From the IMG/VR virus record IMGVR_UViG_3300044991_001466: a stretch of DNA of 64,000 nucleotides. One strand, 5' to 3'. The notes under the pieces were generated by a model that worked only from the letters and a program-made list of their open reading frames with translations, was not told where the DNA came from and searched no databases. Made by a program: the position numbers and the translations under genes. The stretch's first letter is position 1. Every line of letters begins with the position of its first letter. The stretch is from a virus. Taxonomy: Duplodnaviria > Caudoviricetes. This document shows positions 10,882-59,332 of the stretch, piece by piece.

Positions 10882-10890
10882 GAATAAGAA

Positions 10891-12309: not shown

Positions 12310-12388
12310 AAAAATAAACAGAAATAATTCTACAAAAGAATAGAAAACAATAAAAATGAACTATTTATCAATTAAACAAATCAAATAG

Positions 12389-15300
12389 ATGGCACAAATT
12401 ATTAAACACAGGAGGGGTCAGTTATCCGGAATAAAAGCTTTAACCGCAAACAATGGTGAAATTATTGTTGCGTCGGGTTCAATTTCAGATTTACAAGGAC
12501 CATTTATTTTCATCGGTTCACCCGTATTACTGGATAATGGAACCGCTGGAGCCTTTAGTCCGGCCTCTAAAATATATACAGGAGCAGCTGCACCAACAAT
12601 ATTAAATGCGAGTTATGGTACTGCTTTAGATGGTACACCATTTTATGCTAGTGGTGACAAATCGTACTATATTTTAAATAATAGTGGTGCTGGTGGAAAT
12701 ACTAAATTAGATTTAACAGGTAACATTGAAGGTAACACCATTAGTGGAGTTACTATTACCACATTAACAAGTACTAAGGGTACATTCAGTAGTCAAGTAA
12801 ATGTTAGTGGGTCAATTAATGTTACAGGAAGTTTATTTATAAACGGTTCTGAATATACATCAAACTCTTCAGGTACTTCAGGTTCTTCAGGGTCTAGTGG
12901 CTCATCAGGAACTGCTGGTACATCAGGTTCTTCAGGTTCTAGTGGTTCATCAGGAACATCAGGTTCTTCAGGGTCAGACGGTTCTTCAGGAACTTCAGGT
13001 TCTAGTGGTTCAGCTGGTACTTCAGGTTCTAGTGGTTCTTCAGGAACGTCAGGTTCTAGTGGTTCTTCAGGAACTGCAGGAACATCAGGTTCTTCAGGGT
13101 CAGATGGTTCATCAGGTTCTTCAGGAACGTCAGGTTCTAGTGGTTCTTCAGGAACTGCAGGAACATCAGGTTCTTCAGGGTCAGATGGTTCATCAGGTTC
13201 ATCAGGAACAAGTGGATCATCAGGAACATCGGGTTCTAGTGGTTCTTCAGGAACGGCTGGTACTTCAGGAACATCAGGTTCTTCAGGTTCAGATGGTTCA
13301 TCAGGATCTTCAGGTTCATCAGGAACCGCTGGTACTTCAGGAACATCAGGTTCATCAGGTTCTTCAGGGTCAGATGGTTCATCAGGTTCTAGTGGTTCTG
13401 CGGGTACGTCAGGTTCATCAGGGTCATCAGGAACTTCAGGTTCATCAGGTTCATCAGGGTCAGACGGTTCTTCAGGAACATCGGGATCATCAGGTTCATC
13501 AGGAACTTCAGGTTCAAGTGGTTCATCAGGAACTTCAGGTTCATCGGGTTCTTCAGGTTCTAATGGTACAGATGGTACTTCAGGAGATAGTTTATTCGCA
13601 TTAACTGGTTCAATATGGTCTACCCAAAATCCAGTAAGAATAGTAGGAGCTTTAACCGCTTCAATGGTATCATCTTCATTCATAGGCGATGGTGCGGGTT
13701 TATATAATATTCCAGCAAGTGGTGTTACAGGTTTAGAATTAAATAAAATTGTAAACGGTGCGGTAAGTGCTTCAGTTTTATCTGACGGAACATTCAGAGT
13801 AAACGGTGATACATTTATTAATGGTACCATCACGGCAAGACAATTAAATATTGATTATGTAACTTCATCAATTTTATACACATCAGGTTCAACTAAGTTT
13901 GGTGATACATTTGATGATTTACATGAATTTACAGGAAGTGTAAACATAACAGGTTCTTTATTCTTAAATGGTGTAACAGTTGGAACGGGTAAACTAAATA
14001 CAACTGATTTTAACTCATATACATCTTCAGTAAATTCACAATTTGCAGGAACATCATCATTTGCGATTTCTTCATCATATGCTGTTTACGCGGAGAATGC
14101 AGTTATTGTTTCAGGTCAAACTAAAACATTAACAGTAACTACTCCATCAACAACATGGTCATTTACACACAATTTGGGTTATAAATTCCCAGCGATTAAT
14201 GTTTTTGATGGTAATGATAATGTAATAGTTCCTTCAGGAATTAAAGTAAAAAATAGTAATCTATTAGAGGTATATTTTAATAGTGTTGAAACGGGTACTG
14301 TAATTGCCACTATCGGTGGTAATGGTTCTTCTGGAACTTCAGGTTCAGGTGGTTCTTCTGGAACTTCAGGTTCTAGTGGTTCATCAGGAACATCAGGTTC
14401 TTCAGGGTCAGACGGTTCATCAGGAACTTCAGGTTCTAGTGGTTCTTCAGGAACTTCAGGTTCTAGCGGTTCTTCAGGAACATCAGGTTCCTCAGGTTCA
14501 TCAGGAACTTCAGGTTCTAGTGGTTCATCAGGTTCTAATGGTACAGATGGTTCTTCAGGTTCTAGTGGTTCTTCAGGAACGGCTGGTACATCAGGAACTT
14601 CAGGTTCATCAGGTTCAGATGGTACTTCAGGAACATCAGGTTCTTCAGGAACTTCAGGTTCTAGTGGTTCATCAGGAACATCAGGTTCAAGTGGTACTGC
14701 GGGTACTTCAGGTTCTTCAGGGTCAGATGGTTCTAGCGGTTCTTCAGGAACAAGTGGTTCATCAGGTTCTTCAGGAACAAGTGGTTCATCAGGTTCTTCA
14801 GGAACTTCAGGCTCAAGTGGTTCTTCAGGAACTTCAGGTTCAGATGGTACTTCAGGAACATCAGGTACTTCAGGTTCGTCAGGTTCTTCAGGAACTGCGG
14901 GAACTTCAGGTTCTAGTGGTTCATCAGGAACTGCAGGTACATCAGGTTCTTCGGGTTCAGATGGTTCTTCAGGTACTTCAGGTTCTAGTGGTTCATCAGG
15001 AACATCAGGTTCATCAGGAACAGCGGGTACTTCAGGTTCTTCAGGTTCTTCAGGAACGAGTGGTTCTTCAGGTTCTTCAGGGTCTAGCGGTTCATCAGGT
15101 TCTTCAGGAGATAGTATATTCGCTTTAACAGGTTCAGTTTGGGAGACTAATTTAAATGTTAAGTTCAACCAATCAGTAACCTCATCTATATTCACAGGTT
15201 CATTTAAAGGTGATGGTGCAGGACTTTATAACATACCAGCAAGTGGTGTTACAGGATTACAATTAGACAAAATTGCAAGTGGAGCGGTAACAGCTTCAGT

Positions 15301-15997
15301 AACAGCGGCAGGTTTACAAGTAAATGCTAACACATCTATCACAGGTTCTTTAAGTGTAAGTCAAGATGTTAGTTTCTTATCTAATTTGTTTGTATCAGGT
15401 AACCTACAAGTTTTGGGTTCATCAACAAATGTTAATATTGAATCACATACAGTTGAAATCGGTGATAATATCATCCAAGTAAACGCTTACTCACCATTTA
15501 ACAGATATGCGGGTTTATCAGCATACGATTCAGGTTCAGTAGGTGGTTCAGGTTCATTGTTATGGGATTCAACAAATGATTATTGGATACAAGTTGGTTC
15601 TAACGGACAATCAAGTAAAATGGTTGGAGTTACAGGAGGAGCATATGGTAGTGAAGCAAGTTTAACAACAAACGCAATACCAAAAGCAACTACAGGAAAC
15701 ACAATCGGTGATAGTTTGTTAACTGATAATGGTACAACATTAGCATACAACACTAACAAGTTTACCGTAGCATCTTCTGACGGAGCAACGTTAATCGCGG
15801 GTAATGTTACTGTAAGTGCAGCGGGTGGTAGTGACTCTAATAGTAAAACATCAGCAGTTACATTTAGAAACTCATCAAATGTTTTAGGTTATGTATCAAC
15901 AACAGTTGGTAGTGACGTAACGGATGGTTTCTTAGGATATAAAACATCAAATGGTGGTTTAGTATTCTCGAATGTAATTGACGGAGGAACATTCTAA
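12389..15997 (+). CDS. Tail fibre-like protein with two very long Gly-X-Y blocks
   Basis: 1202 aa; MAQIIKHRRG fibre-type start; blocks 12872-13585 and 14324-15109; HNLG beta module; ends IDGGTF. Confidence 0.85.
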   Translation: MAQIIKHRRGQLSGIKALTANNGEIIVASGSISDLQGPFIFIGSPVLLDNGTAGAFSPASKIYTGAAAPTILNASYGTALDGTPFYASGDKSYYILNNSGAGGNTKLDLTGNIEGNTISGVTITTLTSTKGTFSSQVNVSGSINVTGSLFINGSEYTSNSSGTSGSSGSSGSSGTAGTSGSSGSSGSSGTSGSSGSDGSSGTSGSSGSAGTSGSSGSSGTSGSSGSSGTAGTSGSSGSDGSSGSSGTSGSSGSSGTAGTSGSSGSDGSSGSSGTSGSSGTSGSSGSSGTAGTSGTSGSSGSDGSSGSSGSSGTAGTSGTSGSSGSSGSDGSSGSSGSAGTSGSSGSSGTSGSSGSSGSDGSSGTSGSSGSSGTSGSSGSSGTSGSSGSSGSNGTDGTSGDSLFALTGSIWSTQNPVRIVGALTASMVSSSFIGDGAGLYNIPASGVTGLELNKIVNGAVSASVLSDGTFRVNGDTFINGTITARQLNIDYVTSSILYTSGSTKFGDTFDDLHEFTGSVNITGSLFLNGVTVGTGKLNTTDFNSYTSSVNSQFAGTSSFAISSSYAVYAENAVIVSGQTKTLTVTTPSTTWSFTHNLGYKFPAINVFDGNDNVIVPSGIKVKNSNLLEVYFNSVETGTVIATIGGNGSSGTSGSGGSSGTSGSSGSSGTSGSSGSDGSSGTSGSSGSSGTSGSSGSSGTSGSSGSSGTSGSSGSSGSNGTDGSSGSSGSSGTAGTSGTSGSSGSDGTSGTSGSSGTSGSSGSSGTSGSSGTAGTSGSSGSDGSSGSSGTSGSSGSSGTSGSSGSSGTSGSSGSSGTSGSDGTSGTSGTSGSSGSSGTAGTSGSSGSSGTAGTSGSSGSDGSSGTSGSSGSSGTSGSSGTAGTSGSSGSSGTSGSSGSSGSSGSSGSSGDSIFALTGSVWETNLNVKFNQSVTSSIFTGSFKGDGAGLYNIPASGVTGLQLDKIASGAVTASVTAAGLQVNANTSITGSLSVSQDVSFLSNLFVSGNLQVLGSSTNVNIESHTVEIGDNIIQVNAYSPFNRYAGLSAYDSGSVGGSGSLLWDSTNDYWIQVGSNGQSSKMVGVTGGAYGSEASLTTNAIPKATTGNTIGDSLLTDNGTTLAYNTNKFTVASSDGATLIAGNVTVSAAGGSDSNSKTSAVTFRNSSNVLGYVSTTVGSDVTDGFLGYKTSNGGLVFSNVIDGGTF
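12872..13585 (+). repeat. Coding 9-nt-period repeat (Gly-X-Y, 238 codons)
   Basis: Triplets GTS/GSS/GSD/GTA; contains an exact 81-nt-period tandem duplication at 13034-13200. Confidence 0.95.
14324..15109 (+). repeat. Coding 9-nt-period repeat (Gly-X-Y, 262 codons)
   Basis: Triplets GTS/GSS/GSD/GTA ending in GDSIFALTGSVW. Confidence 0.95.
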
Positions 15998-16017
15998 TAG
16001 TAAGTTTAAATAAAATT

Positions 16018-16048
16018 AAAAGGAGACCCTAAAAAGTCTCCTTTTTTT
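16018..16048 (+). terminator. Intrinsic terminator
   Basis: AAAAGGAGAC-cctaaaaa-GTCTCCTTTT followed by Ts. Confidence 0.85.
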
Positions 16049-16147
16049 ATTTATACAATACCAACTTTTGTTGTATTTATGTATAATACCTACATAGGTA
16101 ATTAACCGTGATATATATCACAAAGATTTTTAAGGAAACCCATACAT

Positions 16148-19100
16148 ATGGCACAAATAGTAAAACTACGCAGAAGTTCTGTAGCTGGCAATAAACCAGT
16201 TAATGAAACATTACAATTAGGGGAATTAGCATTAAATACAACCGACGGTAAAATTTATTTAGCCGTATCTGGTTCAGATGGTCCTACAATTGAAGAGGTA
16301 ATTACTACAAATGCATATAATACAGGTTCAGTAAATCTTAGTGGTAGTCTAAAAGTTGTCGGTACAGAATATGTAACCGGCTCAGTTATAATAACGGGTT
16401 CTTTATTCGTTAACGGAAATTCATCATTCACATCATTAGTTGTTTCAGGTTCTGACCCTGTTGGTAATGTACAAGCTTACGTTCCACCAAGTTCAGTTTA
16501 TGATCCTGCGTCATTTAACACACCTGAAAGGGTTGCTAGTGGTATTCGTTTTAATTGGAATAATGAAAACTGGACTATTGGTGCAGCAAGAGGTGCAACA
16601 ACCGATATTGATGGTTTAATTTTTAGTAGAAACGGAGTTAAAAAATACATGTTGGACGAAGATGGTAATGCATCTTTATCAGGTTCAATGTATATAAGCG
16701 GTTCATTATTTGTTAATGGTGCTGAAGTTGGAACAGGTAAATTAAACGAAACAACATTTAATTCATATACAAGTTCAAATGTTTCACAATTTGCGGGAAC
16801 ATCATCATTTGCATTAACCGCATCATATGTTGCAAATCCAACATTAGTATCAGGGTCAACAAAAAAATCAACAGTATCGGTAGGAGCAACAACATGGTCA
16901 TTCAATCACCAATTAGGTGAAAGATATCCATCAATTAATGTATTCGATTCAAATGGTTTTGTTGTTATCCCTAAAGATATTGAAACAATAGATGCAAATA
17001 ACTTAAATGTATATTTTTCATCAAATCAGACAGGTACAGTAATTGCAACAATAGGCGGAGGAGGTTCGTCAGGAACGAGTGGTAATGGTACTTCAGGAAC
17101 AAGTGGTTCATCGGGTTCTAGTGGAACAAGTGGTTCATCAGGAACTAGTGGTGTTAACGGTTCTTCAGGTACAAGTGGTGGTTCAGGTTCTTCAGGGTCT
17201 AATGGTACATCAGGTTCATCAGGAACGAGTGGTAGAGATGGTATTGGTGGTACAACACAAACATTTGCAGCATCTACAACATGGTCAGTAGCACATAATT
17301 TAGGTACTAATTTTCCGGCAGTAACTGTTTGGGACGATAATAAAAATGTGGTTATCCCAAGTCAAATAAAATCAATCGATACTAACAATATTGATGTTTA
17401 TTTTGGTAGTCCAATTTCAGGTAGTGTAAATGTAATATTTGGTGGACATGTTGTTAGTGGTGCTATTGACACATCGGCGGTTGGACACATTGTACCTTCA
17501 GTTAATAACACATATGATTTAGGTTCGGCATCAAAACAATTTAGACACTTATATTTGTCATCAGGTTCATTATATATTGACGGACAAAAAGTTTTGGGTA
17601 GTTCAAACCAAGAGTTACAAATTACAACGGATAATGGTCAATCATTAAAAATATTAGAACAAGGTACCGATACTATCACATTACAAAGTGCTGACGGAGA
17701 CATTCAATTAAAAACATCTGCGGGTGGTAATGTATTGTTAGACCCAACAACAGGATTAATTGATTTAAGAGGAACGGTTCAAATACAAGACGGTAATAAA
17801 ATTACAAGTTCAGGAGCAACTAAAGTTGTTTTTGGAAATGATATAGAAGTTACGGGTTCGATTAGAACAAGTGGTACATTAATTGTAAATGGGGTTTCAT
17901 TCTCAGCCATGACATCAGGAACTTCAGGTTCAAGTGGTGGTTCGGGTTCATCTGGTTCAGGTGGTACTTCAGGAACATCAGGTTCTAATGGGTCTAGTGG
18001 AACATCAGGTTCATCAGGAACAAGTGGTACTTCAGGAAGTAGTGGAACGTCAGGCAGTTCAGGGTCATCGGGTACAAGTGGAACCTCAGTAACTGTTTCA
18101 GGTACTAACGATGTAATTGGTAAATTCAGTTCAGGAACATTAGTTAATTCAAATATAACCGATAATGCTTCGGTAGTTAACATTAATTCAAATACAATAA
18201 TCACAGGTTCATTGACGATTACACAAAACTTAAATGTTTTAGGTTCATCATCAATAACTTATACGACAGCTTCCCAATTAAGGGTAGATGATAATGTTAT
18301 TACGGTTAATGCCTCAAGTCCAGGTGTGAGATTTGCTGGTTTATCAGTAATTGATAGTGGTTCGTCACCTACCGTTTCGGGTTCATTCTTATTTGATTCA
18401 TTAAATAATCAATTTGTTTATGTTCACACAAATCAAGGTGTGGTAACATCTTCAGTTGTTATGGTGGGTGCACAAACTTACAATAGTTTAGGAAATGAGA
18501 TTTTACCCACACAAAATAGAATATTAAAATCTTTAGGTCAGGAACATCTTGGTGATTCTAATATTTCAGATGATGGCACAACAGTTAAAATTAGTACAAA
18601 CACAGAAATAACAGGTTCGTTAAGAGTTACAAGTTTAAATATTAACGGAACATCGTACGCCGCTGCTACAAGTGGAACGTCAGGTTCTTCAGGTAGTTCA
18701 GGTACAAGTGGTTCATCAGGAACATCAGGTTCTTCAGGTTCAAATGGTTCTTCAGGAACATCAGGTAGTTCAGGTTCTAGCGGAACATCTGGCAGTTCAG
18801 GTTCATCAGGAACATCAGGTTCTAGTGGTAGTAACGGTTCATCAGGTTCTAGTGGTACAACAACAATCACAAATGCGGTAGATAATAGAGTAATGACAAG
18901 TGTCGGTGGTGTTACGTTAAATGCGGAAGCGAATTTAACATTTGACGGATCAACATTAACAGTAACAGGAGCAGTATCAACAACCGGTAACTTAACAGTA
19001 GGTGGAACATTAACAGAAAACTCATCAGTAAGATATAAGGATAACATTGAAACTTTAAAATATGGTTTAGATAATGTTCTTAAAATGAGAGGTGTTTCAT

Positions 19101-19294
19101 ACATTAAAAAAGATACAGGTGTTAAAGAGATTGGTTTAATAGCAGAAGAGTTAAATGAAATTGCACCTGAATTGGTAAATAAAAATGAAGAAGGATTACC
19201 TGATTCCGTTTCTTACGGTAGAGTAGTTTCATATTTGATTGAAGCAATAAAAGATTTAAAGAAAGAAATTGAAGAACTTAAATCAAATAAATAA
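16148..19294 (+). CDS. Tail fibre with C-terminal intramolecular chaperone (peptidase S74)
   Basis: N-terminus KLRRS..KP...LQLGELALNTTDGKIY; Gly-X-Y blocks 17054-17251, 17918-18088, 18674-18856; from 19022 SSVRYKDNI...GLIAEEL..IAPELV...VSYGRVVSYLIEAIKDL coiled coil. Confidence 0.9.
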   Translation: MAQIVKLRRSSVAGNKPVNETLQLGELALNTTDGKIYLAVSGSDGPTIEEVITTNAYNTGSVNLSGSLKVVGTEYVTGSVIITGSLFVNGNSSFTSLVVSGSDPVGNVQAYVPPSSVYDPASFNTPERVASGIRFNWNNENWTIGAARGATTDIDGLIFSRNGVKKYMLDEDGNASLSGSMYISGSLFVNGAEVGTGKLNETTFNSYTSSNVSQFAGTSSFALTASYVANPTLVSGSTKKSTVSVGATTWSFNHQLGERYPSINVFDSNGFVVIPKDIETIDANNLNVYFSSNQTGTVIATIGGGGSSGTSGNGTSGTSGSSGSSGTSGSSGTSGVNGSSGTSGGSGSSGSNGTSGSSGTSGRDGIGGTTQTFAASTTWSVAHNLGTNFPAVTVWDDNKNVVIPSQIKSIDTNNIDVYFGSPISGSVNVIFGGHVVSGAIDTSAVGHIVPSVNNTYDLGSASKQFRHLYLSSGSLYIDGQKVLGSSNQELQITTDNGQSLKILEQGTDTITLQSADGDIQLKTSAGGNVLLDPTTGLIDLRGTVQIQDGNKITSSGATKVVFGNDIEVTGSIRTSGTLIVNGVSFSAMTSGTSGSSGGSGSSGSGGTSGTSGSNGSSGTSGSSGTSGTSGSSGTSGSSGSSGTSGTSVTVSGTNDVIGKFSSGTLVNSNITDNASVVNINSNTIITGSLTITQNLNVLGSSSITYTTASQLRVDDNVITVNASSPGVRFAGLSVIDSGSSPTVSGSFLFDSLNNQFVYVHTNQGVVTSSVVMVGAQTYNSLGNEILPTQNRILKSLGQEHLGDSNISDDGTTVKISTNTEITGSLRVTSLNINGTSYAAATSGTSGSSGSSGTSGSSGTSGSSGSNGSSGTSGSSGSSGTSGSSGSSGTSGSSGSNGSSGSSGTTTITNAVDNRVMTSVGGVTLNAEANLTFDGSTLTVTGAVSTTGNLTVGGTLTENSSVRYKDNIETLKYGLDNVLKMRGVSYIKKDTGVKEIGLIAEELNEIAPELVNKNEEGLPDSVSYGRVVSYLIEAIKDLKKEIEELKSNK

Positions 19295-20950: not shown

Positions 20951-21814
20951 ATGGCAAATCTTACAAATCTTACCATAAACGACACTGGTTATATACAATT
21001 ACCATCGGGTACAACGGCACAAAGACCCGTATCACCATTGACTGGTTATATTAGATTTAATACAACTATGGGTTTAGTTGAATATTACAACGGTACTTAT
21101 TGGATAGATCAAACAACCGGTAGAATTGCGGAAGGTGGTATTGTAACATCAAACTTATTACTTCATTTAGATAGTGGTAAACCAACGAGTTATCGCGGTG
21201 GTAATGTGTGGTATGATGTTAGTTCACAATGTGCACATGGGATATTTGTAAACAGTCCAACATATACACCAGCTGATGGTTCGGGAGGTACCGTTTCATT
21301 TGACGGAACTAATGATTATATTAGAATTTCTACATTAAATACATTACCAACAACACAAATAACTATGGAAGGTTGGATTAAACCAACAAGAACAGTAAGT
21401 ACAGGTACAGTAAGAGGTGGTGTGGTTTCTGCAACAAATACAACATATTTGGGTATATTTAATTCCGCAGATGGTGGTAGTACACACTCTTTACATTGGG
21501 CAAATACTACCGATAGTAGTAGACCATATAGTGCAGTTGGTAATATTCCCAATAATGTTTGGTCACACATTGTAGGTACATGGGATGGTTCAACGAGTAG
21601 AGCGTATGTGAATGGTACTGAAGTATGGTCTGCGGCACAGACAGGGACAATTGCCGCTGCCACATATGTAGTTGGAACATATGGAAGTGGATTGACAGAT
21701 GGGTTGCATAATTTTCAAGGACAAATTGCAATTGCAAGAATGTATAGTATAGGATTAAGTGGAGCTCAAGTTTTACAAAATTATAATGCTCAAAGAAATA
21801 GATTTAATATTTAA
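20951..21814 (+). CDS. LamG/concanavalin-A-like lectin domain virion protein
   Basis: N-terminal LPSGTTAQRP..GYIRFNTT module; LLLHLDSG, TMEGWIKP, WSHIVGTWDG..YVNG, FQGQIAIARMYS..LS..QVLQNYNA. Confidence 0.85.
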   Translation: MANLTNLTINDTGYIQLPSGTTAQRPVSPLTGYIRFNTTMGLVEYYNGTYWIDQTTGRIAEGGIVTSNLLLHLDSGKPTSYRGGNVWYDVSSQCAHGIFVNSPTYTPADGSGGTVSFDGTNDYIRISTLNTLPTTQITMEGWIKPTRTVSTGTVRGGVVSATNTTYLGIFNSADGGSTHSLHWANTTDSSRPYSAVGNIPNNVWSHIVGTWDGSTSRAYVNGTEVWSAAQTGTIAAATYVVGTYGSGLTDGLHNFQGQIAIARMYSIGLSGAQVLQNYNAQRNRFNI

Positions 21815-21819
21815 ATGTA

Positions 21820-22527
21820 ATGGCAAGTTTAAAAAATTTAACAATTAACGACACTGGATTTATTGGATTACCAACAGGTAGTACAGCTGAAAGACCATCT
21901 CCATCTAATGGATATTTAAGATATAATACTACATTAGGTAGACCCGAAGTTTATATTAGTAGTTGGTTAAACCCATACGCCAGAACGGAAGGTTATTTAC
22001 ATTATTACGAAGGTAGAGATGCAAATTTATATACTGCAAATTGGAATAATAGCACAACGTATTCAATGTTAAATTTTGGTGGATTAGGTCATATTACGGC
22101 ACATGGTTGGACAACTGGTCCTGCAACATATACATTAACATTAGGTTCAATTCCAATACACACACAAGTTCGTTATTTAGTATTTTGGCATTTAGTAGAT
22201 TCGTTGGATACTGAAACAAGTAATTTGTACTTAATGAACTCAGCCGGAACTGAAACTGAATTTCTAAGATTTACAAAGATATATAACGCGGTACCAACCA
22301 CATCGGTTTTACAATCGGGAGCAACAGCAACGTGGAGTGGTGCTAAATCGTACACATATAGACCTTGGGCAAGTGGAGCATATGGAAACGATGGTTACTA
22401 TTTATTTGATAGTGGATATTATGACCACACATCCACATCATTTACTGCAAGACACGTATGTGGTGCAGACCAAGCACAAGCGGATGAAGCGATGTATCTT
22501 TCACACGTTCAATTATGGATTAAATAA
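21820..22527 (+). CDS. Putative adhesin with shared N-terminal fibre-docking module
   Basis: LPTGSTAERP..GYLRYNTT module, then an aromatic-rich beta domain of unknown family. Confidence 0.65.
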   Translation: MASLKNLTINDTGFIGLPTGSTAERPSPSNGYLRYNTTLGRPEVYISSWLNPYARTEGYLHYYEGRDANLYTANWNNSTTYSMLNFGGLGHITAHGWTTGPATYTLTLGSIPIHTQVRYLVFWHLVDSLDTETSNLYLMNSAGTETEFLRFTKIYNAVPTTSVLQSGATATWSGAKSYTYRPWASGAYGNDGYYLFDSGYYDHTSTSFTARHVCGADQAQADEAMYLSHVQLWIK

Positions 22528-22533
22528 TAAATT

Positions 22534-24195
22534 ATGGCAACACTTAAAAATACAACAATAACAAGTTCTACGGGATATTTGGGGTTACCATCTGGAACAG
22601 GAACACAACGACCATCACCAACAACTGGAATGATGAGATATAATTCAAGTCGTACTGAGGTTGAAGTATATGATGGTACCAAATGGATGAGTGTACAAAA
22701 AAGAAAAGAAAATTATAGTACATCTGGTTTAGTTTGTTATATAGATGCAGGTGACCCTAATTGTTATAGTGGTAATGGTAGTACATTAACCGATTTATCA
22801 GGAAATGCTAATAATTTAACTCTACCTGGTTCAGGTGTTTCATTTAATACTACCGGAGGAGGTTCTTTATATTTTGATGGAACCGCAAGAGCAAACGTTG
22901 CACATCATAGTTCATTGGATTTTACTAGTACACAACAATATACTGCGTTAATTTGGGTAAATCCATCATTAGGTGGTGGAACTTGGCACGGATTAATTAG
23001 TAAAGGAGATTCACAACAATACGCCGCAACATTGAGAAGTGCATTCGGATATATTCATTATGAAACAAATTACTCATTGGCAGCGATAGATACACCCAAT
23101 AATTCAATAATAGGAAGTAAGTGGCAACAAGTTGTCATTAGAAGTGACGGGTCATCAAAAGCAACATTTATTGATACAATACGATGTGCATATGTAACAG
23201 GTGCCGTTAGTTCAACTACAAATACTGAAACATTGAGATTTGGTGAAGGTAATACGGGAGAATTACTTATTGGTTATTTAGGAGCGGTTATGATTTATAA
23301 CCGAGCATTAAGTGATGAAGAAATTGGAAATATATTTAATGAACAAAGAGGTAGATATGGAGTAGATGCACCATTAGGATCGGCATTTAATCCAGCGGAT
23401 TCGGCACAAACAATAAAGACCTTAAATACAAATGCACCAAATGGTGTATATTATATAAATTTACCCAATATCGGCCCGAGAAAAACATTTTGTATTATGG
23501 ATAGTACATATGATGGAGGGGGTTGGATGATGGTAATGAAAGCCACACGAGGAACTACTTTTAATTATGGGGCAAGTTATTGGACCACACAAAATGTATT
23601 AAATCAAAATAATTTAAATCAAGATGATGGTGATGCCAAATACGATGCATTCAATTATTTTGAAGGTACAGATTTAATGGCTAGATGGCCCGATATTCCA
23701 ACTACTGGTGGTAGTATTGCGGGAACAGGAAATTGGATATGGATGGAAAAAGGGTTTAATGGTGGTAGAGCTAGTACGCGAACAAATTTAGTAGATTTTT
23801 TTACTAATGCAGGAACATACGAAAGTGGTGATGGTGGTACTTATGGTGGATATTTTTTAAGAGATGCAAAAACTTTTACTGGTTGGGCAAGTGGAGTATT
23901 TTCAAGTCAAGTAGATATTAGATTTTATGGATTTAATTTTAGAAACAACCCATTGTATTTTGGTGCAACCGATGCCAAAGTTAGATGGGGGTTTGGTTGG
24001 AATGAAAACGGAGAAGGGTTGTATACATCACCCGCTACTTTGGCAGTTGGACCATATAGAGGTTCGGATGATGTAAGTGGTGGTATTGGTATGGATAGTA
24101 GATATGGTAATTTCTCAGGTGGAGATTTGATTGGTTGTTGTCAAGATACGACTGGTATAAATAGAAGTGCAAGAGTGGAAGTCTATATTAGATAA
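22534..24195 (+). CDS. LamG plus fibrinogen-C-like domain virion protein
   Basis: Shared N-module; LVCYIDAG...MIYNRALSDEEI LamG; PADSA..I...NGVYYI...FCIMD..DGGGWMMV fibrinogen-like start. Confidence 0.8.
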   Translation: MATLKNTTITSSTGYLGLPSGTGTQRPSPTTGMMRYNSSRTEVEVYDGTKWMSVQKRKENYSTSGLVCYIDAGDPNCYSGNGSTLTDLSGNANNLTLPGSGVSFNTTGGGSLYFDGTARANVAHHSSLDFTSTQQYTALIWVNPSLGGGTWHGLISKGDSQQYAATLRSAFGYIHYETNYSLAAIDTPNNSIIGSKWQQVVIRSDGSSKATFIDTIRCAYVTGAVSSTTNTETLRFGEGNTGELLIGYLGAVMIYNRALSDEEIGNIFNEQRGRYGVDAPLGSAFNPADSAQTIKTLNTNAPNGVYYINLPNIGPRKTFCIMDSTYDGGGWMMVMKATRGTTFNYGASYWTTQNVLNQNNLNQDDGDAKYDAFNYFEGTDLMARWPDIPTTGGSIAGTGNWIWMEKGFNGGRASTRTNLVDFFTNAGTYESGDGGTYGGYFLRDAKTFTGWASGVFSSQVDIRFYGFNFRNNPLYFGATDAKVRWGFGWNENGEGLYTSPATLAVGPYRGSDDVSGGIGMDSRYGNFSGGDLIGCCQDTTGINRSARVEVYIR

Positions 24196-53077: not shown

Positions 53078-54565
53078 ATGAGAACAGTATTAATAGGTTC
53101 GGACTTTATGTACGATAAAGATGGTAATTTAAAACCCATTGAAATAAACACTGCAGTAGGATGGGATGGACTTCAGAAGATTGAGGATAATATAGATTGT
53201 TTGGATTTAACGGGTTTATACCAATTTATTGAAACTAAAGGATTTACATCCGTACATTATGTGGGCGATATACCATATATAAACGAAACGTTAGAAACTT
53301 ATTATAGTGGAAGTTCAATCACATATGAATATCATTTGGTTAATAAATTAGCCATCACAGTGCCATTTATTGAAGATAATGATGAAACATTAATTATTAG
53401 AAGTTCATATGACACAACAGCATTGGTAGATGATACATATTGTAAAGATAAGGTTAATTTTTTAAATTTAATTAAAGATTCTTCATTCGGTTCTCAATTT
53501 GCTTATTTAGATGAATCAAACCAATTAGTGTCAAACATTACAACAATTAATGATAATGGGGAACACCCAAACTTTATTTTAAAGGCGAGATATCCTTCTT
53601 ACGATAAAGAAGTTTATCCTAAATTTTTTAAGGTATCAACACAAGAAGAATTGAATACAATTTTAGAGAATGTAACATCGGATTACTTCTTAATGGAGAA
53701 TTATTGTAACACCACCAATAATTTTGAAGGACATGTAAAAGTTATAAGAAGTTTAAATATATTGTATCCACCAACATTAGAATCAATACAAATTGGTCAA
53801 TACACTAGAATTAATCAAAATATAATTTTTTCTAATGTAGAATATGATTCAATAACTCATATGTTAAATTCGGAATATAGAGAGAGTTATATAACATTAA
53901 CAACTATTAAAGGAGTACCCAAATTATTAGACACAGATTTAGTAGAAATGCCAGATGGTACGTTTAAAACTGCATTAGATTTAAACGTTGGGGATGTAAT
54001 CAAAACAATTGATATACCAAATCCAAATGGTGTGGATAATCAATCATATCTTGCAAATTTTGAAATAACATACGAAACACTTGTATCAGGTACAACTTAT
54101 TCAACAAATAAAATTGTCAATAAAAAAAGAGTAAATTTATTAACATATATTAATCGATTAACTTTTGATGATAATAGTACATGGGAAGATACGTCAATTT
54201 CTTCTTATTTAATTGAAAGAGATAATGTTATACAATTTGAAGAAATACATGGTATAAAAATGGGAGATGTTGTTTTATTATTAGATACAACAGAGGGATT
54301 GGTAGATTTTATTAGAAAAAATGTTGTAGAAAATGTAGAGACTAAAACAATATTTTCCGGTTGGTTTATTACAGTAGAAAATGCTCATCTATTTTTAACT
54401 AAAACATCATCTACAAATAATGAATCTTTTGTTTCCATTGAACATAATGCTGGTGAAGCTTGTTATTATTGCTCCGGCGGGTCTCAATCTGCTTACTGCC
54501 CTAAATCGGCACCATATTGTGGAGCATATGGATATTGTGTATATTCTCCTGAATATTGTCCATAA
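53078..54565 (+). CDS. Permuted ATP-grasp-like domain + Hint domain + C-terminal Cys-rich peptide
   Basis: GSDF..DKDG.LKPIEINT at the N-terminus, FILKARYP, FLMENY; Hint-like region 53921-54448 (LLDTDLVEMPDG..K...L.VGD.I; ITVENAHLF...IEHN); then 38 aa with 6 Cys. Confidence 0.7.
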   Translation: MRTVLIGSDFMYDKDGNLKPIEINTAVGWDGLQKIEDNIDCLDLTGLYQFIETKGFTSVHYVGDIPYINETLETYYSGSSITYEYHLVNKLAITVPFIEDNDETLIIRSSYDTTALVDDTYCKDKVNFLNLIKDSSFGSQFAYLDESNQLVSNITTINDNGEHPNFILKARYPSYDKEVYPKFFKVSTQEELNTILENVTSDYFLMENYCNTTNNFEGHVKVIRSLNILYPPTLESIQIGQYTRINQNIIFSNVEYDSITHMLNSEYRESYITLTTIKGVPKLLDTDLVEMPDGTFKTALDLNVGDVIKTIDIPNPNGVDNQSYLANFEITYETLVSGTTYSTNKIVNKKRVNLLTYINRLTFDDNSTWEDTSISSYLIERDNVIQFEEIHGIKMGDVVLLLDTTEGLVDFIRKNVVENVETKTIFSGWFITVENAHLFLTKTSSTNNESFVSIEHNAGEACYYCSGGSQSAYCPKSAPYCGAYGYCVYSPEYCP

Positions 54566-54572
54566 ATTATTG

Positions 54573-54607
54573 TAAAATAAAATAAAATAAAATAAAATAA
54601 AATAAAA
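54573..54607 (+). repeat. Simple tandem repeat (TAAAA)7
   Basis: Seven perfect pentamers; the last A is the A of ATG 54607. Confidence 0.9.
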
Positions 54608-54696
54608 TGGCAAAAATTATAACAAATACCGAAATTAATACGTTAAATACAACCCTAACAACTATTGGTAATTTAATAGTAACCGCAAATAGTTAG
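54607..54696 (+). CDS. Possible 29-aa micro-ORF
   Basis: MAKIITNTEINTLNTTLTTIGNLIVTANS fills the gap between the Hint gene and 54719. Confidence 0.35.
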   Translation: MAKIITNTEINTLNTTLTTIGNLIVTANS

Positions 54697-54718: not shown

Positions 54719-55018
54719 ATGAAATTAGATTTTAAAGAAATATCAACGGCTTGGTATAATAAACTTATACATTCTAATGAATTAAAAAAATTAGCTGATG
54801 ATAGATTTGATATTTGTTTAGAATGTCCGTCTAAAAAAGAAATTTTCAAAGGTAAACAATGGTCTCTCAGGTGTGGAGAATGTGGGTGCCCTTTAGCAGG
54901 TAAAGTATATACATCTAATACATATTTGGATAAAAACGGATCATGTCCATTAGAAAAGTGGAAAGAAGTTGAGATTGAATATTTAAAAAATTTTAAAAAA
55001 ATGAAAACTTTTATATAA
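54719..55018 (+). CDS. Small Cys-rich metal-binding protein (DUF6171-like)
   Basis: RFDICLECP...CGECGCPL..K...CPLEKW; ends KTFI. Confidence 0.7.
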   Translation: MKLDFKEISTAWYNKLIHSNELKKLADDRFDICLECPSKKEIFKGKQWSLRCGECGCPLAGKVYTSNTYLDKNGSCPLEKWKEVEIEYLKNFKKMKTFI

Positions 55019-55019
55019 A

Positions 55020-55703
55020 GTGTCTTATTTAATTAATAATGAACTTATTTGGGTTTCTATTCCAAAATGTGCAAGTTACTCTATTGAACGAGCACTTAGA
55101 AATTCAAAACTAAAATTAGATACCTACGACCCAAATATTATTATAGACGAGCACCTTCACGTCCCATTAACTGAGTGTTTATCACTATGGGGAAACAAAG
55201 AAACTGTTTGTATAACCAGAGATTATGTGCATAGATGGATGAGCTCTTTAAATTTTATTTGGGATAAAATAGAATTTGAAAGTGATTATACCCTTATTCG
55301 TAAATGGGAAGATGTTGATAATGAATTTTTATATAAAATGTTTGATACCAAGTTTCTCAATGATTTACATTCATTTGACGGCAATGATTTAGAAACAAAA
55401 AATTGTTTTTTAAAATTAGTAAAAGAAAAATACGACATTTTAAAAAAAATGCCATTTATAATGATAACCTTAGTTTCCCCAAACTTTTTTAAATCCAATA
55501 GAAAATGTACATATGAGTTTGACATTAAAGAAATAGATAAATTTGTTGATTTTATTGAAGATAGATTTGGTGAAAGATTAATTATAGAGAGCACTAACCA
55601 ATCTACAAAAAGACCAAATAAAATTATAATAAATGATGAATTAAAATCATTTATTTTAGAAAATTTTGAAAATAGATTTAAAAAAAGAAATCAATTAATA
55701 TAG
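55020..55703 (+). CDS. Sulfotransferase-like protein (Sulfotransfer_2-like)
   Basis: WVSIPKCASYS PSB-like loop, TRDYVHRWMS 3'-phosphate-binding-like motif; GTG start; ends NQLI. Confidence 0.7.
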   Translation: MSYLINNELIWVSIPKCASYSIERALRNSKLKLDTYDPNIIIDEHLHVPLTECLSLWGNKETVCITRDYVHRWMSSLNFIWDKIEFESDYTLIRKWEDVDNEFLYKMFDTKFLNDLHSFDGNDLETKNCFLKLVKEKYDILKKMPFIMITLVSPNFFKSNRKCTYEFDIKEIDKFVDFIEDRFGERLIIESTNQSTKRPNKIIINDELKSFILENFENRFKKRNQLI

Positions 55704-55706
55704 TAT

Positions 55707-56180
55707 ATGCAAATATATAAAAACATATTAACAAATGATTTTTGTGATATTTTAATAGAAAAAATTAAGAATGAATGTGTATTAAGTGAATCTCATAAAA
55801 AAGGGTGGTATGTTTGGTTAATTTGGGGACAACAACCCAGTCAACCACTAAGTAGAGAAAAGTGGAATGAAGAAATCTATAATATGGTAACTGATGAGTT
55901 AAATAGATGTAATTTTCCTAAACATAAAACAATGTGGCTACAAATGACAGAATATAAAGATGGTAGGTGGTTACGAAGACATGTAGATGGTGCAGGAAAT
56001 AAAACAATAATAATTTTGTTATCCAATGAATTTGTGGGTGGAGATACATATATAAATGATAGTGTTGTAAATTTAAAAAAGGGCGATGGTGTTATATTTG
56101 ATGGGGGTTATCAATATCATGAAGTAACACCAGTAACAGAAGGAACACGATACGCTTTAAATTTTTGGTTATATAAATAA
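55707..56180 (+). CDS. 2OG-Fe(II) oxygenase
   Basis: Y..G..L.RHVD, LLSNEFVGG, GDGVIF, YHEVTPVTEGTRYAL. Confidence 0.9.
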   Translation: MQIYKNILTNDFCDILIEKIKNECVLSESHKKGWYVWLIWGQQPSQPLSREKWNEEIYNMVTDELNRCNFPKHKTMWLQMTEYKDGRWLRRHVDGAGNKTIIILLSNEFVGGDTYINDSVVNLKKGDGVIFDGGYQYHEVTPVTEGTRYALNFWLYK

Positions 56181-56189
56181 CAATATAAT

Positions 56190-57233
56190 ATGGTAGATTT
56201 AAAGAATTATGTTTGTAGTGTTCCTTTTAATTCATTAGAAATACATAATAATGTTTGTTTTGTTTGTTGTCCATCTTGGTTACCAAATAAGATTGAAATA
56301 TCAGAAGTACCACTAAAGGATATGTGGAATAGTGAACCAATCGTTGATATTAGAAATTCTATATTAGATGGTTCATTTAAATATTGTAATAAAGAACTTT
56401 GTCCTTATTTAAGTAAATTAATAAACTATGGTGTGACATCTGGTCCAGTCAGACTGAAATCAGATTCAAATATTAATAATCCAATTATTGAAAATAATAC
56501 ACCCGATTATTTGGTAATGAATTTTGATAGAACTTGTAATTACAAATGTCCATCATGTAGAGTTGATTTAATTGTTGAAAATAGTGAAGGGATAAAAAGA
56601 GTTGAAAAAACAATTGAAGATATTGATAAATATTATTCAGCAAATGTAAAAACTTTATACATAACAGGTTCTGGAGACCCATTTGTTTCAGTCGGGTTTA
56701 GAAATTATTTAAGAAATTTTAATCCAAAAAAATATCCAAATTTAAAATCAATACACTTACATACCAATGCCTCAATGTGGAATAAAGAAATGTGGGATAG
56801 TATGCCAAATATTCACAAATATGTCGGTACCTGTGAAATCAGTATAGATGCAGGAACAAAAGACACATATGAAAATAAAACAAGATTAGGTGGTAATTGG
56901 GAAAATTTATTGAGTAATTTAAAATTTATTAGTACCATACCGAATATTAATGTAAAAACTTCCTTTGTTGTACAAGATAGTAACTATACTGAAATGGAAA
57001 CATTTTATAATTTAATGTATTCTATTTTTGGTAAAAAAGTAAATGTGTTTTTTGGTAAAATAACAAATTGGGGTACATTTTCAGAGGGTGAATTCAAATT
57101 TAAACAGGTATGGGATACCGAACACCCAGAACACCAATTATTTAAAAAAGAATTTAATAAGGTATGGAAAAACACAAATCTATTTCATAATCTATATGAG
57201 TTTATTGAGAGCACTAATAAAACATTGATATAA
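56190..57233 (+). CDS. Radical SAM protein with N-terminal SPASM-like cluster
   Basis: CSVPF...CC..W...C...CP; CNYKCPSC; TGSGDPF; ends KTLI. Confidence 0.88.
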   Translation: MVDLKNYVCSVPFNSLEIHNNVCFVCCPSWLPNKIEISEVPLKDMWNSEPIVDIRNSILDGSFKYCNKELCPYLSKLINYGVTSGPVRLKSDSNINNPIIENNTPDYLVMNFDRTCNYKCPSCRVDLIVENSEGIKRVEKTIEDIDKYYSANVKTLYITGSGDPFVSVGFRNYLRNFNPKKYPNLKSIHLHTNASMWNKEMWDSMPNIHKYVGTCEISIDAGTKDTYENKTRLGGNWENLLSNLKFISTIPNINVKTSFVVQDSNYTEMETFYNLMYSIFGKKVNVFFGKITNWGTFSEGEFKFKQVWDTEHPEHQLFKKEFNKVWKNTNLFHNLYEFIESTNKTLI

Positions 57234-57247
57234 TTTAACATAATAAA

Positions 57248-57817
57248 ATGGTTATTACAATAATCGCCGAACCAAGAAGTGGGTCAACAAATTTAGCAGA
57301 TTATTTTAAATCAAATAAAGATTTTACTATTTTACAAGAACCATTAAATAAATATGGAAAATCGTATCAAAAAAATAATCCAATTAATAAATGGACTTAT
57401 AATACAAAACACTTATTAATTAAGGAAATATATGACCCAAATAAAAACTTAAAAGAATTAATACAATTTTCAGATAAAATAATTATTCTTTATAGAGAAA
57501 ATAAAAATGAACAATTAGAATCTTGGTTAGTTGCAAAGGTAACCAATAATTGGCGGGGTAAATGGGTAAATAGTAAAATTCGTATACCTAACAAAGAATT
57601 AAAAATTCAGTTTTTTAATAAAATGGTTAATGAGTTTGAAATAGAATATAGATTAAATAATGATATGTTTAAAATATCATATGAAGAACTTTATTACAAG
57701 AATGGTTTTGAAAAAATAGTGAATTATCTTAATATTGATAGTGTTAAGAATATTGATTTTCCATATGGTCAAAAATATAGGTTGGACAAAATAGAAATAA
57801 ATAAAACTTTAATATGA
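57248..57817 (+). CDS. Sulfotransferase-like P-loop protein (Stf0-like)
   Basis: IAEPRSGST, EPLN, LYREN..EQLES, ISYEEL; ends KTLI. Confidence 0.7.
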   Translation: MVITIIAEPRSGSTNLADYFKSNKDFTILQEPLNKYGKSYQKNNPINKWTYNTKHLLIKEIYDPNKNLKELIQFSDKIIILYRENKNEQLESWLVAKVTNNWRGKWVNSKIRIPNKELKIQFFNKMVNEFEIEYRLNNDMFKISYEELYYKNGFEKIVNYLNIDSVKNIDFPYGQKYRLDKIEINKTLI

Positions 57818-58518
57818 TAAGGATATATTACCACATATATGTCATTGATGGCGTTGAATCTATAATAAATGAACAACTGACATTAATAAAAAAATACATT
57901 AATCAACCATATTCATTAACTATTGGCATCTCAGTATCAGAAAATAATAATTCAGTAGACGATATGATTAAATTAATTTATGGGTATGATTCAAAAATTA
58001 TAATCGGTGATACTAAATTAATGGGTAACGAGTTTATAACATTAAATTTAATAGAAAGAGATAAATCATCATTTGATGACACTGACTACATTTTGTATTT
58101 ACACACAAAGGGAGCTTCTAAACAAATGAATTCCGAATCTATCCGATGGAGAAATGTAATGCAATTACATAATATTCAATATATTGATAACGTATTTGGA
58201 ATTTTGGATAATGAAGTTTTTAACACATATGGTTTTTTATTAGAAGTAGTAAGTAACCCTACAAATATAATGTACTCTGGTAATTTTTGGTGGATGACCG
58301 GACAATACGCTAAAACAATAGACATAAGTAATGTTGATATTACAAATAGATGTAATGCAGAGTTACAATATATTCAAATGGGAACGGATTGGAAACCCTA
58401 TTCAATAATTAGAAAGGGAGATAATTGGAAACCTTATTCATACTTTATTAAGGACAAAGGGGGGGGGATAGAAAAACGTAATATTAACACAAAATTAAGT
58501 TTTAATAAATTAATATAA
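57814..58518 (+). CDS. Putative glycosyltransferase-like protein
   Basis: YYHI, YILYLHTKG, YSGNFWW, R..AE..I motifs; ends NKLI. Confidence 0.5.
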   Translation: MIRIYYHIYVIDGVESIINEQLTLIKKYINQPYSLTIGISVSENNNSVDDMIKLIYGYDSKIIIGDTKLMGNEFITLNLIERDKSSFDDTDYILYLHTKGASKQMNSESIRWRNVMQLHNIQYIDNVFGILDNEVFNTYGFLLEVVSNPTNIMYSGNFWWMTGQYAKTIDISNVDITNRCNAELQYIQMGTDWKPYSIIRKGDNWKPYSYFIKDKGGGIEKRNINTKLSFNKLI

Positions 58519-58528
58519 TTATGAATAT

Positions 58529-59332
58529 ATGGACCCGTTAAAATATTGGACGTTAGATGGATTTGAAATATCATCATTTAAGTTTAATTTAAATGAAAGA
58601 AAGGGAAAGACGTATAAAACATGCGGTTCCGATGGTACTGGCTTGTGTAGCTATGCCTATAATGAATTAGGATTTAGGGGAGATAGTGTAAAAAAAGAGG
58701 GATTTAAAGTAATGTCATTAGGTTGTTCTCATACCGAAGGTGTCGGTGTTAATTACAATGATATGTGGTCAACACGATTTACAAATCGTATACCCAATGG
58801 TGTTAATATGAATTTTGGTACAGGTGGTAGAAGTAATGATTTTATTACTAGATGTCTATTAACATATTACGATGTGGTAAAACCTGATTTGGTATTAATA
58901 ATGTATACATCACCATTAAGAAGAGAAATATACACAAAAGATGGTAATATAGAACCATTTATTCCCGCTCGTTCATGGGGATATATGGGTGAAACTGAAG
59001 ACGGTAAACAAACACAAAGTTATTTAACTGAATTACAAAATGATAATGAAGATTTAATTAATTGGTATAAAAATCATCAACTAATAAAATTATTCTTAGA
59101 AACTAAAAATTGTAATTGGATTTGGAATGGGTCGTTTGGTATACCAAGTGAATTTAAAGAGCCTAACAGATTTGATGGTGAATATCAAATTTTTATCGAT
59201 AAGGGTGTTGAAGGGGGACATGCTGGCCCCGAACAAAATAAAAGTTATGCAAATAAATTATACGACTTCATAACTGAAAATTTCCCAAATTACATAAATG
59301 TTTTATCAAAAAATAAACAAAGTTTGATTTGA
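58529..59332 (+). CDS. SGNH/GDSL-like protein
   Basis: YNELGFRG, LGCSHTEGVG, NFGTGGRSN, GHAGP; ends QSLI. Confidence 0.7.
   Translation: MDPLKYWTLDGFEISSFKFNLNERKGKTYKTCGSDGTGLCSYAYNELGFRGDSVKKEGFKVMSLGCSHTEGVGVNYNDMWSTRFTNRIPNGVNMNFGTGGRSNDFITRCLLTYYDVVKPDLVLIMYTSPLRREIYTKDGNIEPFIPARSWGYMGETEDGKQTQSYLTELQNDNEDLINWYKNHQLIKLFLETKNCNWIWNGSFGIPSEFKEPNRFDGEYQIFIDKGVEGGHAGPEQNKSYANKLYDFITENFPNYINVLSKNKQSLI

Follow-up and report, generated by a model that had tools for sequence, protein, structure and literature searches.

The viral DNA analyzed here, a stretch of 64,000 nucleotides from IMG/VR record IMGVR_UViG_3300044991_001466 (Duplodnaviria, Caudoviricetes; hereafter "the window"), carries an intact gene for a 495-residue protein that joins an ATP-grasp ligase domain to a Hint domain and a Cys-rich C-terminal peptide (Table 1). 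We interpret this protein as a three-part, single-use device consisting of a ligase, a Hint domain capable of cleavage only, and a modular cargo, and give this explanation as a whole a probability of about 0.6. The evidence comes from the conservation pattern of the Hint active site, from the exchange of cargo modules at a single bond, and from the predicted structure and invariant residues of the ligase domain.

An earlier note on this DNA, made from the letters alone, had proposed such a fusion, and all the motifs that it quoted are present in the translation where it had placed them. In the ligase domain these are GSDF..D..G..KPIEIN (residues 7-24), FILKARYP (166-173), and FLMENY (204-209); in the Hint domain they are LLDTDLVEMPDG (residues 283-294), TSIS (372-375), and SIEHN (453-457), together with GIKMGDVV and FITVENAHLF. 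The 38-residue tail after His-Asn, beginning with AGEAC and containing six Cys and eight Tyr, is likewise encoded as claimed.

Hint Domain

Modeling with AlphaFold2 (AF2) from an alignment of 127 sequences gave a confident structure (predicted local distance difference test, pLDDT, 91.5; predicted template modeling score 0.86) in which only the tail was uncertain. Foldseek searches of the PDB matched residues ~276-457 to the second bacterial intein-like (BIL) domain of the Tetrahymena BUBL1 locus (6y75), the Ssp DnaB mini-intein (1mi8), a Clostridium BIL (2lwy), and Hedgehog (1at0), with E-values of 1e-7 to 1e-5 and template modeling (TM) scores by target of 0.65-0.74. Matches in the Swiss-Prot part of the AlphaFold Database agree on a Hint domain, aligned to query residues 276-457. 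The family profile (278-457) was also compared by hhalign with the canonical second Hints that some family members carry, which themselves pass the Pfam thresholds for PT-HINT or Intein_splicing. This comparison (probability 98.8%, E-value 7e-16) aligned the two His-Asn pairs with each other and matched K282 to Cys1 and S375 to the block-B His. The Hint fold proposed in the earlier note was thus recovered both by Foldseek and by profile-profile comparison.

The two residues that the note had reported as missing, the Cys at position 1 and the block-B His, are missing throughout the family. Among 127 diverse relatives, from which all column statistics are drawn, Cys never occurs at position 282; the residues found there include K (40 sequences), H (29), L (19), and I (8), and only 10 sequences have S or T. 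His likewise never occurs at the block-B position 375, where S (76), T (16), and A (13) are among the residues found. The terminal Asn457 is retained in 126 of the 127 and the penultimate His456 in 123. The Asn is also retained in all 115 close full-length homologues in which the motif was located, and among the 120 close homologues listed, the four with a substituted His all keep the Asn. This pattern, with Asn and His kept and Cys1 and the block-B His lost, is what a Hint domain retained only for cleavage by Asn cyclization should show. C-terminal cleavage arises when the terminal residue cyclizes without the earlier steps, and type A BILs with His-Asn cleave more than they splice (PMC4031507). 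We infer that the window's protein probably cleaves itself at His-Asn by Asn cyclization.

Intein-type assignments were rejected. A class 3 intein does not fit because position 430 (block F position 4) is T, E, F, S, or N and the domain has no conserved Cys. A protein-splicing intein inserted in a host protein does not fit because relatives differ in the residue at +1 (Y, F, L, G, S, A, E, V, P, and others) and because the flanks are two unrelated modules and not the halves of one protein.

Cargo Following His-Asn

Module swapping in the family starts exactly after His-Asn, and the cargo that follows ranges from 3 to 1,242 residues. Among 104 distant representatives, cargos of 11-100 residues are the most frequent class (62) and are Cys-rich. 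A further 31 representatives have 101-250 residues, 10 of which run on into a canonical Hint; six have 539-1,242 residues, two of them with BACON domains; and five have only 3-7 residues, all with Lys. A Peptidase_S74 domain follows the Cys-rich peptide above the Pfam cut-off in members P0200 and P0219, at a borderline score in P0222, and more weakly in P0196. The cargo can therefore end in three ways, with a free end, a canonical BIL/intein-like Hint, or a Peptidase_S74 autoprotease. In the second and third of these arrangements, a further self-cutting module, unrelated in type between the two, brackets the peptide, which argues strongly that the peptide is meant for excision.

Divergence within the close family is concentrated in the tail. 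Mean pairwise identity is 0.72 in the ligase, 0.64 in the Hint domain, and 0.35 in the tail, where it falls to 0.23 without Cys, so that the Cys framework is conserved while the loops vary. The claim that His-Asn is conserved while the following peptide is hypervariable therefore holds. Non-synonymous divergence of the tail is about twice that of the body. The ratio of non-synonymous to synonymous divergence (pN/pS) is 0.67-0.83 with saturated synonymous sites; as it is below 1, positive selection on the tail is not demonstrated.

The short cargos follow strict compositional rules. Their Cys count is even in 62 of 62 (8, 6, 10, 12, or 4), which, together with the near absence of His, favors disulfides over zinc sites. 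An even Cys number and a conserved framework with varying loops fit a disulfide-rich, knottin-like mini-protein. Lys makes up 3.5% of their residues, yet it is present in all 62 (expected 48; reached in 0 of 20,000 shuffles), and exactly one Lys is found in 41 (expected 20), placed either mid-peptide in C-x-K or at the very C-terminal end. In the tails of the close family (n = 115), exactly one Lys occurs in 97 and none lacks it. In the two-Hint class, the peptide is free of Lys, and its last residues before the second Hint are Gly-Gly; that Hint in turn ends in His-Asn, after which comes Lys-Lys. This layout would look like the insertion of a BIL-type element directly ahead of the conserved Lys, and the aminolysis route of type A BILs (PMC4031507), if it operates here, would rejoin the two pieces.

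Other arrangements were also observed. In P0270 the His-Asn of the first Hint abuts Cys1 of another, canonical Hint, with the Cys-rich peptide placed behind the latter, while in P0251 and P0175 just 3-7 residues lie between the two Hints; the order of modules is thus shuffled within the family. The long cargos of P0186, P0203, P0210, P0223, and P0224 (704-1,242 residues; two with BACON domains) all start with D-T-x-D-C-x(3-4)-K-S, and four of these five starts contain P-K-S, which recalls C-P-K-S in the window's peptide. Two long-cargo genes (loci L003 and L004) lie directly upstream of a tail-sheath gene.

The tail of the window's protein is richer in GC than its surroundings, as the earlier note had stated (43.9% against 26-28% in the remaining gene), and only 5% of the 114-nt stretches across the whole window are as GC-rich as this. 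The third-position GC content of the tail is close to that of the body (0.18 and 0.16), so that the rise reflects Cys, Gly, Pro, and Ala codons, and a foreign origin of the tail was rejected. The predicted mass of the free cargo is ~4020 Da in reduced form and 4014 Da with three disulfides. As regards a cystine-knot topology, AF2 gave the tail a pLDDT of 52-65, and a search of the ESM Atlas returned weak look-alikes only, all with TM scores below 0.5 (chitin-binding, TIL, and mucin-type Cys modules).

ATP-Grasp Ligase Domain

When residues 1-280 were folded alone, AF2 gave a pLDDT of 95. The best Foldseek matches of this domain, with E-values from 3e-6 upward, were eukaryotic glutathione synthetases (GS), related nematode effectors, E. 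coli YjfC/YgiC, glutathionylspermidine synthetase (GspS), and trypanothione synthetase. In VIA comparisons, Z-scores were 8.0-8.6 to GS, GspS, and YgiC and 4.5-6.5 to the tubulin tyrosine ligase-like family (TTLL), RimK, LysX/ArgX, and Ddl. The permuted enzymes GS, GspS, and YgiC align with model residues 1-277, whereas RimK, LysX/ArgX, Ddl, TTL/TTLL, and E. coli GshB align only from residue ~55 to ~280, through their own first 200-250 residues. This difference in alignment range makes the circular permutation directly visible. In a profile search of PDB sequences, residues 9-32 aligned weakly with EF..E.N, the Mg-site motif that biotin-carboxylase-type enzymes carry at residues 274-297 (E-value 0.3, at motif level only). 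Together with the Foldseek and VIA ranges, this bears out the view of the earlier note that the N-terminal domain is an ATP-grasp in circularly permuted form, in which the Mg-binding E-x-N comes first.

Among the diverse relatives, the Mg2+/ATP triad is kept at D9 in 125 of 127 and at E22 and N24 in all 127. R108, D118, K169, and R224 are also invariant or near-invariant, which is consistent with a predicted active site. The N-terminal domain looks catalytically intact, and residues 1-277 very likely constitute an active ligase. The N-terminal substrate-binding (pre-ATP-grasp) region of GS and GspS is absent, as the alignment begins at about residue 120 of human GS and the domain has only ~277 residues. 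The nearest cellular fold relative among AlphaFold Database clusters is A0A7C5WAC9 (residues 205-497, TM score 0.71), which is annotated as "Piwi domain-containing."

Distribution of the Family

A word-indexed search identified at least 747 close homologues, nearly all of 485-505 residues, and an exhaustive search of cluster representatives matched 277 clusters at 50% identity. Given these numbers, the ATP-grasp-Hint-cargo arrangement is far more than a chance feature. Viral contigs from IMG/VR, 67 in all and the longest of 335 kb, carry close relatives, and the surroundings of distant members include genes for tail sheaths, glycosyltransferases, radical S-adenosylmethionine (SAM) enzymes, and 2-oxoglutarate (2OG) oxygenases. 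The close-family search patterns had no match in ~185,000 bacterial and archaeal species genomes of GTDB, which leaves room for distant cellular relatives, and tblastn against GenBank phages (INPHARED) gave no match and hence no cultured relative. The family belongs to large uncultured tailed phages and appears to be restricted to them. In BFVD, an alignment of 390 columns was obtained with the viral protein A0A1C3NFC6 (506 residues), which may have the entire architecture.

Genomic Neighborhood

Conserved genes follow the main gene (Table 1). Neighbors were counted over 72 loci, many of them incomplete, so that all counts are lower bounds. The most constant neighbor is a 2OG-Fe(II) oxygenase, whose family is often present in several copies per locus and was also found in the distant loci L001 and L002. 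The 99-residue Zn-ribbon-like protein is homologous to neighbors of very distant members in L004 (E-value 1e-18) and, by sequence, in L002; the L004 copy has a weak DUF6171 match. The 227-residue protein is 32% identical (E-value 4e-32) to a neighbor of the two-Hint member in L002. Both of these proteins also adjoin members only 26-34% identical to the window's protein. A complex prediction for the 495-residue protein with the 99-residue neighbor scored 0.25, below the mark, which weighs neither for nor against an interaction. A sulfotransferase-like label for 55020-55703 is not confirmed by Pfam, and neither is a sulfotransferase label for 57248-57817 (best Pfam match Sulfotransfer_3, E-value 0.13). 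Several neighbors had no match in Pfam, and the long cargos had none in PHROGs. The 29-residue open reading frame (ORF) directly behind the main gene, into which a perfect (TAAAA)7 repeat runs (54573-54696), probably represents a genuine small gene.

Table 1. Positions in the window of the ATP-grasp-Hint-cargo gene, its parts, and conserved downstream genes.
Feature	Position	Strand	Evidence
Main ORF, intact, 495 aa	53078..54565	+	ORF and translation check
ATP-grasp ligase domain, residues 1-277, compact, circularly permuted	53078..53908	+	AF2, Foldseek, VIA, invariant residues
Hint domain, residues 282-457; K282 at Cys1 position, S375 at block-B His position; ends in H456-N457	53921..54448	+	hhalign, Foldseek, column statistics
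Codon of Asn457, predicted scissile residue (succinimide formation would cut N457-A458)	54446..54448	+	Asn conservation; cargo boundary
Cargo peptide, 38 aa, starts AGEAC; 6 Cys, 8 Tyr, one Lys	54449..54562	+	Translation; hypervariable
Lys476 in C-P-K motif, sole conserved Lys of cargo	54503..54505	+	Family-wide Lys counts
Small ORF, 29 aa, starts MAKIITNTEINTLNT	54607..54696	+	Conserved 24-48 nt past main-gene stop in 20 of 69 loci, including relatives 42-43% identical
Zn-ribbon-like protein, 99 aa, six invariant Cys, related to DUF6171	54719..55018	+	64 of 72 loci; directly downstream in 36
Conserved neighbor, 227 aa	55020..55703	+	53 of 72 loci; no significant Pfam match
2OG-Fe(II) oxygenase, PF13640, prolyl-hydroxylase type	55707..56180	+	Pfam E-value 1.2e-9; 66 of 72 loci

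The downstream genes also share a C-terminal signature. Counted over window positions 54719-59332 and 69 related loci, the ending [TS][ILF][ILF] (consensus K-T-L-I) is found in 250 of 598 (42%) same-strand downstream ORFs, compared with 28 of 450 (6%) upstream ORFs and 0 of 69 main proteins. In the window, six of the next seven ORFs end in KTFI, NQLI, KTLI, KTLI, NKLI, or QSLI. This tail could be a docking or address label, or a substrate end for the ligase.

Other genes give a broader picture of these loci. The two-Hint member in L002, whose peptide contains two Trp, has a flavin-dependent Trp halogenase and two to three 2OG oxygenases directly beside it (L002 1220-2446); of the surroundings seen, these are the most like those of a ribosomally synthesized and post-translationally modified peptide (RiPP). 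In the window, four collagen-repeat proteins of 1290, 472, 1202, and 1048 residues are encoded at 7009-19294, the last of which (16148-19294) ends in a Peptidase_S74 chaperone, and two Laminin_G_3 proteins are encoded at 20951-24195, which places a fiber module upstream of the modification island. The 2OG oxygenases could act on the collagen-like repeats instead of the peptide. Further PHROG matches in the window are to a DNA methyltransferase (3480-4322, E-value 1e-41) and a transcription antiterminator (4347-4874, E-value 1e-20).

Proposed Mechanism and Alternative Explanations

In the proposed device, the permuted ATP-grasp ligase would phosphorylate a carboxylate and join it to an amine. 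The only reaction open to the Hint domain, which lacks N-terminal thioester chemistry and keeps its terminal His-Asn, would be cyclization of Asn457, by which the N457-A458 bond would be cut once, in cis. This would leave a 52-kDa enzyme ending in a C-terminal succinimide and free the cargo, a 38-residue peptide with three expected disulfides and one conserved Lys, with a new alpha-amine. More speculatively, the fused ligase might join the epsilon-amine of the cargo's Lys or the freed alpha-amine to a carboxylate, and the 2OG oxygenase, the Zn-ribbon-like protein, and the 227-residue protein might tailor or handle the peptide. Relatives of the GS and GspS type couple an amine to short peptides after activating their C-terminal carboxylate. 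As the universal Lys and the newly exposed alpha-amine are both on offer, the cargo would be favored as the amine donor; that the ligase acts on its own cargo in this way is a tentative suggestion, to which we give somewhat less than even odds. The earlier note had left open whether the cargo is an effector, a RiPP core, or a conjugated tag, and the single conserved Lys and the tailoring-type neighbors favor one of the latter two.

Several observations weigh against this device. Cleavage and ligation are predictions from sequence and modeled structure. The 495-residue protein itself has no useful match in Pfam (E-values up to 10), PHROGs, or PDB sequences, and its domain calls rest on homologues, profiles, and predicted structure. 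Asn cyclization in inteins is assisted by the F-block position, where a His is found in only 46 and an Asp in 51 of the 127 relatives. AF2 places the tail without confidence, so that the model lends no support to contact between the cargo and the ligase site. If the host cytoplasm is reducing, the formation of disulfides would require help or would have to await lysis. Finally, given the five members with a mere 3-7 residues beyond His-Asn, the role of the module may not require a large cargo.

An unlikely alternative is a RiPP-like precursor with a giant self-removing leader, in which the ATP-grasp-Hint part serves as both leader and leader protease. The ligase would close a ring in the cargo, head-to-tail or from Lys476 to the C-terminal carboxylate, neighboring enzymes would hydroxylate, sulfate, or halogenate it, and the Hint domain would free the finished product. 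The gene content of the loci is compatible with this, as 2OG oxygenases are present in 66 of 72, the 227-residue protein, a radical SAM enzyme, and an adenosine 5'-phosphosulfate (APS) kinase are nearby, and the two-Hint member of L002, with two Trp in its peptide, forms a compact set with two 2OG oxygenases and the Trp halogenase. Every cargo also offers a single conserved Lys, and graspetide ATP-grasp enzymes are known to install side-chain macrocycles (PMC13418204). However, 14 of the 62 short cargos have no Asp or Glu, so that a Lys-Asp/Glu lactam cannot be general, and neither the BACON-containing class of 539-1,242 residues nor cargos of 3-7 residues suit RiPP cores well. The sulfotransferase calls lack support in Pfam, as described above, and the island is rich in glycosyltransferases, so that its enzymes may instead act on glycans or collagen-like fibers.

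Quite improbable, in our judgment, is a Hint domain that has become a degenerate structural element, with the Cys-rich end remaining attached as a disulfide- or metal-stabilized knob, such as the binding tip of a virion-associated enzyme. The loss of Cys1 and the block-B His and the variable F-block His would be expected of such a domain, the gene lies in a virion-fiber and glycan-modification region, and the weak structural look-alikes of the tail are chitin-binding, TIL, and mucin-type Cys modules. A dead Hint, however, would not retain its Asn and His almost without exception (126 and 123 of 127) amid the surrounding drift, nor would cargo exchange be expected to fall exactly at the His-Asn bond or the peptide to be bracketed by a second Hint or a Peptidase_S74 domain in other members.

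A low probability, similar to that of the degenerate domain, is also given to a hitherto undescribed phage system of protein or peptide conjugation headed by this gene, in which the Hint domain would uncage the cargo and the ligase would then join its Lys or alpha-amine to a free C-terminal carboxylate. Candidate carboxylates would be the K-T-L-I-COOH tail of the downstream enzymes or a fiber C-terminus exposed by Peptidase_S74. Such ATP-driven, single-use tagging would follow a logic like that of ubiquitin or Pup ligation or of BUBL, with different parts.

Release of a toxin or antimicrobial peptide acting on competitors or grazers after lysis, which would account for the extreme cargo diversity, the layout of a constant N-terminal part, a Hint, and a hypervariable C-terminal cargo as in polymorphic toxins with pretoxin-HINT (PT-HINT) domains, and the match of second Hints in the family to PT-HINT (PF07591), is very improbable, as the N-terminal part is an intact enzyme and not a domain for secretion or trafficking, the 72 loci have no conserved neighbor resembling an immunity gene (the constant neighbors being the oxygenase, the Zn-ribbon-like protein, and tagged enzymes), the window's protein has no PT-HINT match in Pfam (E-values up to 10), and a universal single Lys and minimal cargos of 3-7 residues are ill-suited to toxins.

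Significance

The strict rules of the family, namely a terminal Asn, an even number of Cys, and one Lys, point to a defined chemistry. If cleavage and ligation both take place in the proposed ligase-Hint-cargo device, the protein would be a natural single-turnover module that presents a peptide with a free N-terminus beside a ligase. The family would then supply many small disulfide-type scaffolds with hypervariable loops, in effect a large natural library, and would offer an approach to what the tagged enzyme islands in jumbo phages do. As a tool, the module might serve for self-cleaving expression or for ligation, and it may represent a new way to make or attach peptides. Taken separately, ATP-grasp peptide ligases and Hint-mediated release of a C-terminal cargo are both well known. 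Searches of the open literature, among it a comparative survey of jumbo phages (PMC7824862), turned up no description of a ligase-Hint-cargo fusion. The closest established kind is Hint-mediated cargo release, and there is a real chance that the system as a whole is new.

Comparison With Known Systems

The window's protein resembles PT-HINT proteins in having a Hint directly before a hypervariable C-terminal cargo that is thought to be released autoproteolytically. It differs from them in that an ATP-grasp domain, and not a trafficking or repeat region, precedes the Hint, which has no Cys1, and in that no immunity gene was seen. It is encoded by a large phage of lytic type, and most cargos in the family are small Cys-rich peptides carrying a single conserved Lys.

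Type A BILs and the ciliate BUBL (BIL-ubiquitin-like-BIL) loci are similar at the level of the Hint domain, as the second BIL of BUBL1 (6y75/6tmm) is the best structural match and likewise has a terminal His-Asn and no +1 nucleophile. In BUBL loci, self-processing Hints enclose a small domain, which is released and becomes attached to Lys (PMC8616854), and the two-Hint members of the phage family have the same bracketed layout. However, BILs keep an N-terminal Cys and form a thioester, which the phage Hint, with K, H, or L at position 1, cannot do. Moreover, BUBL conjugation is independent of ATP, whereas the phage protein carries a fused ATP-dependent ligase.

The ligase domain shares the permuted topology of GS, GspS, trypanothione synthetase, and YgiC/YjfC, with the Mg-binding E-x-N ahead of the nucleotide-binding part. 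It differs from this clade in its low identity (10-15%), the lack of a Pfam match, its size (~277 residues compared with 370-600), and its fusion to a Hint. Graspetides (microviridin-type RiPPs) also couple an ATP-grasp enzyme genetically to a ribosomal peptide with tailoring-type neighbors. Their ligases, however, are canonical, non-permuted (7mgv aligns from residue 56 only, Z-score 4.1), and separate from the precursor, their core needs the Asp or Glu that is missing from 14 of 62 short cargos, and their leader is cut by separate proteases and not by a fused Hint; membership in this type was rejected because of the cargos without Asp or Glu. Peptidase_S74 of phage fibers and spikes is also a self-cleaving C-terminal module and follows the Cys-rich peptide in P0200 and P0219. 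It is not part of the window's 495-residue protein, cuts its own N-terminus after trimer assembly, and has a fold unrelated to Hint. The window's protein is thus within the Hint and ATP-grasp superfamilies and outside inteins, PT-HINT proteins, and graspetides.

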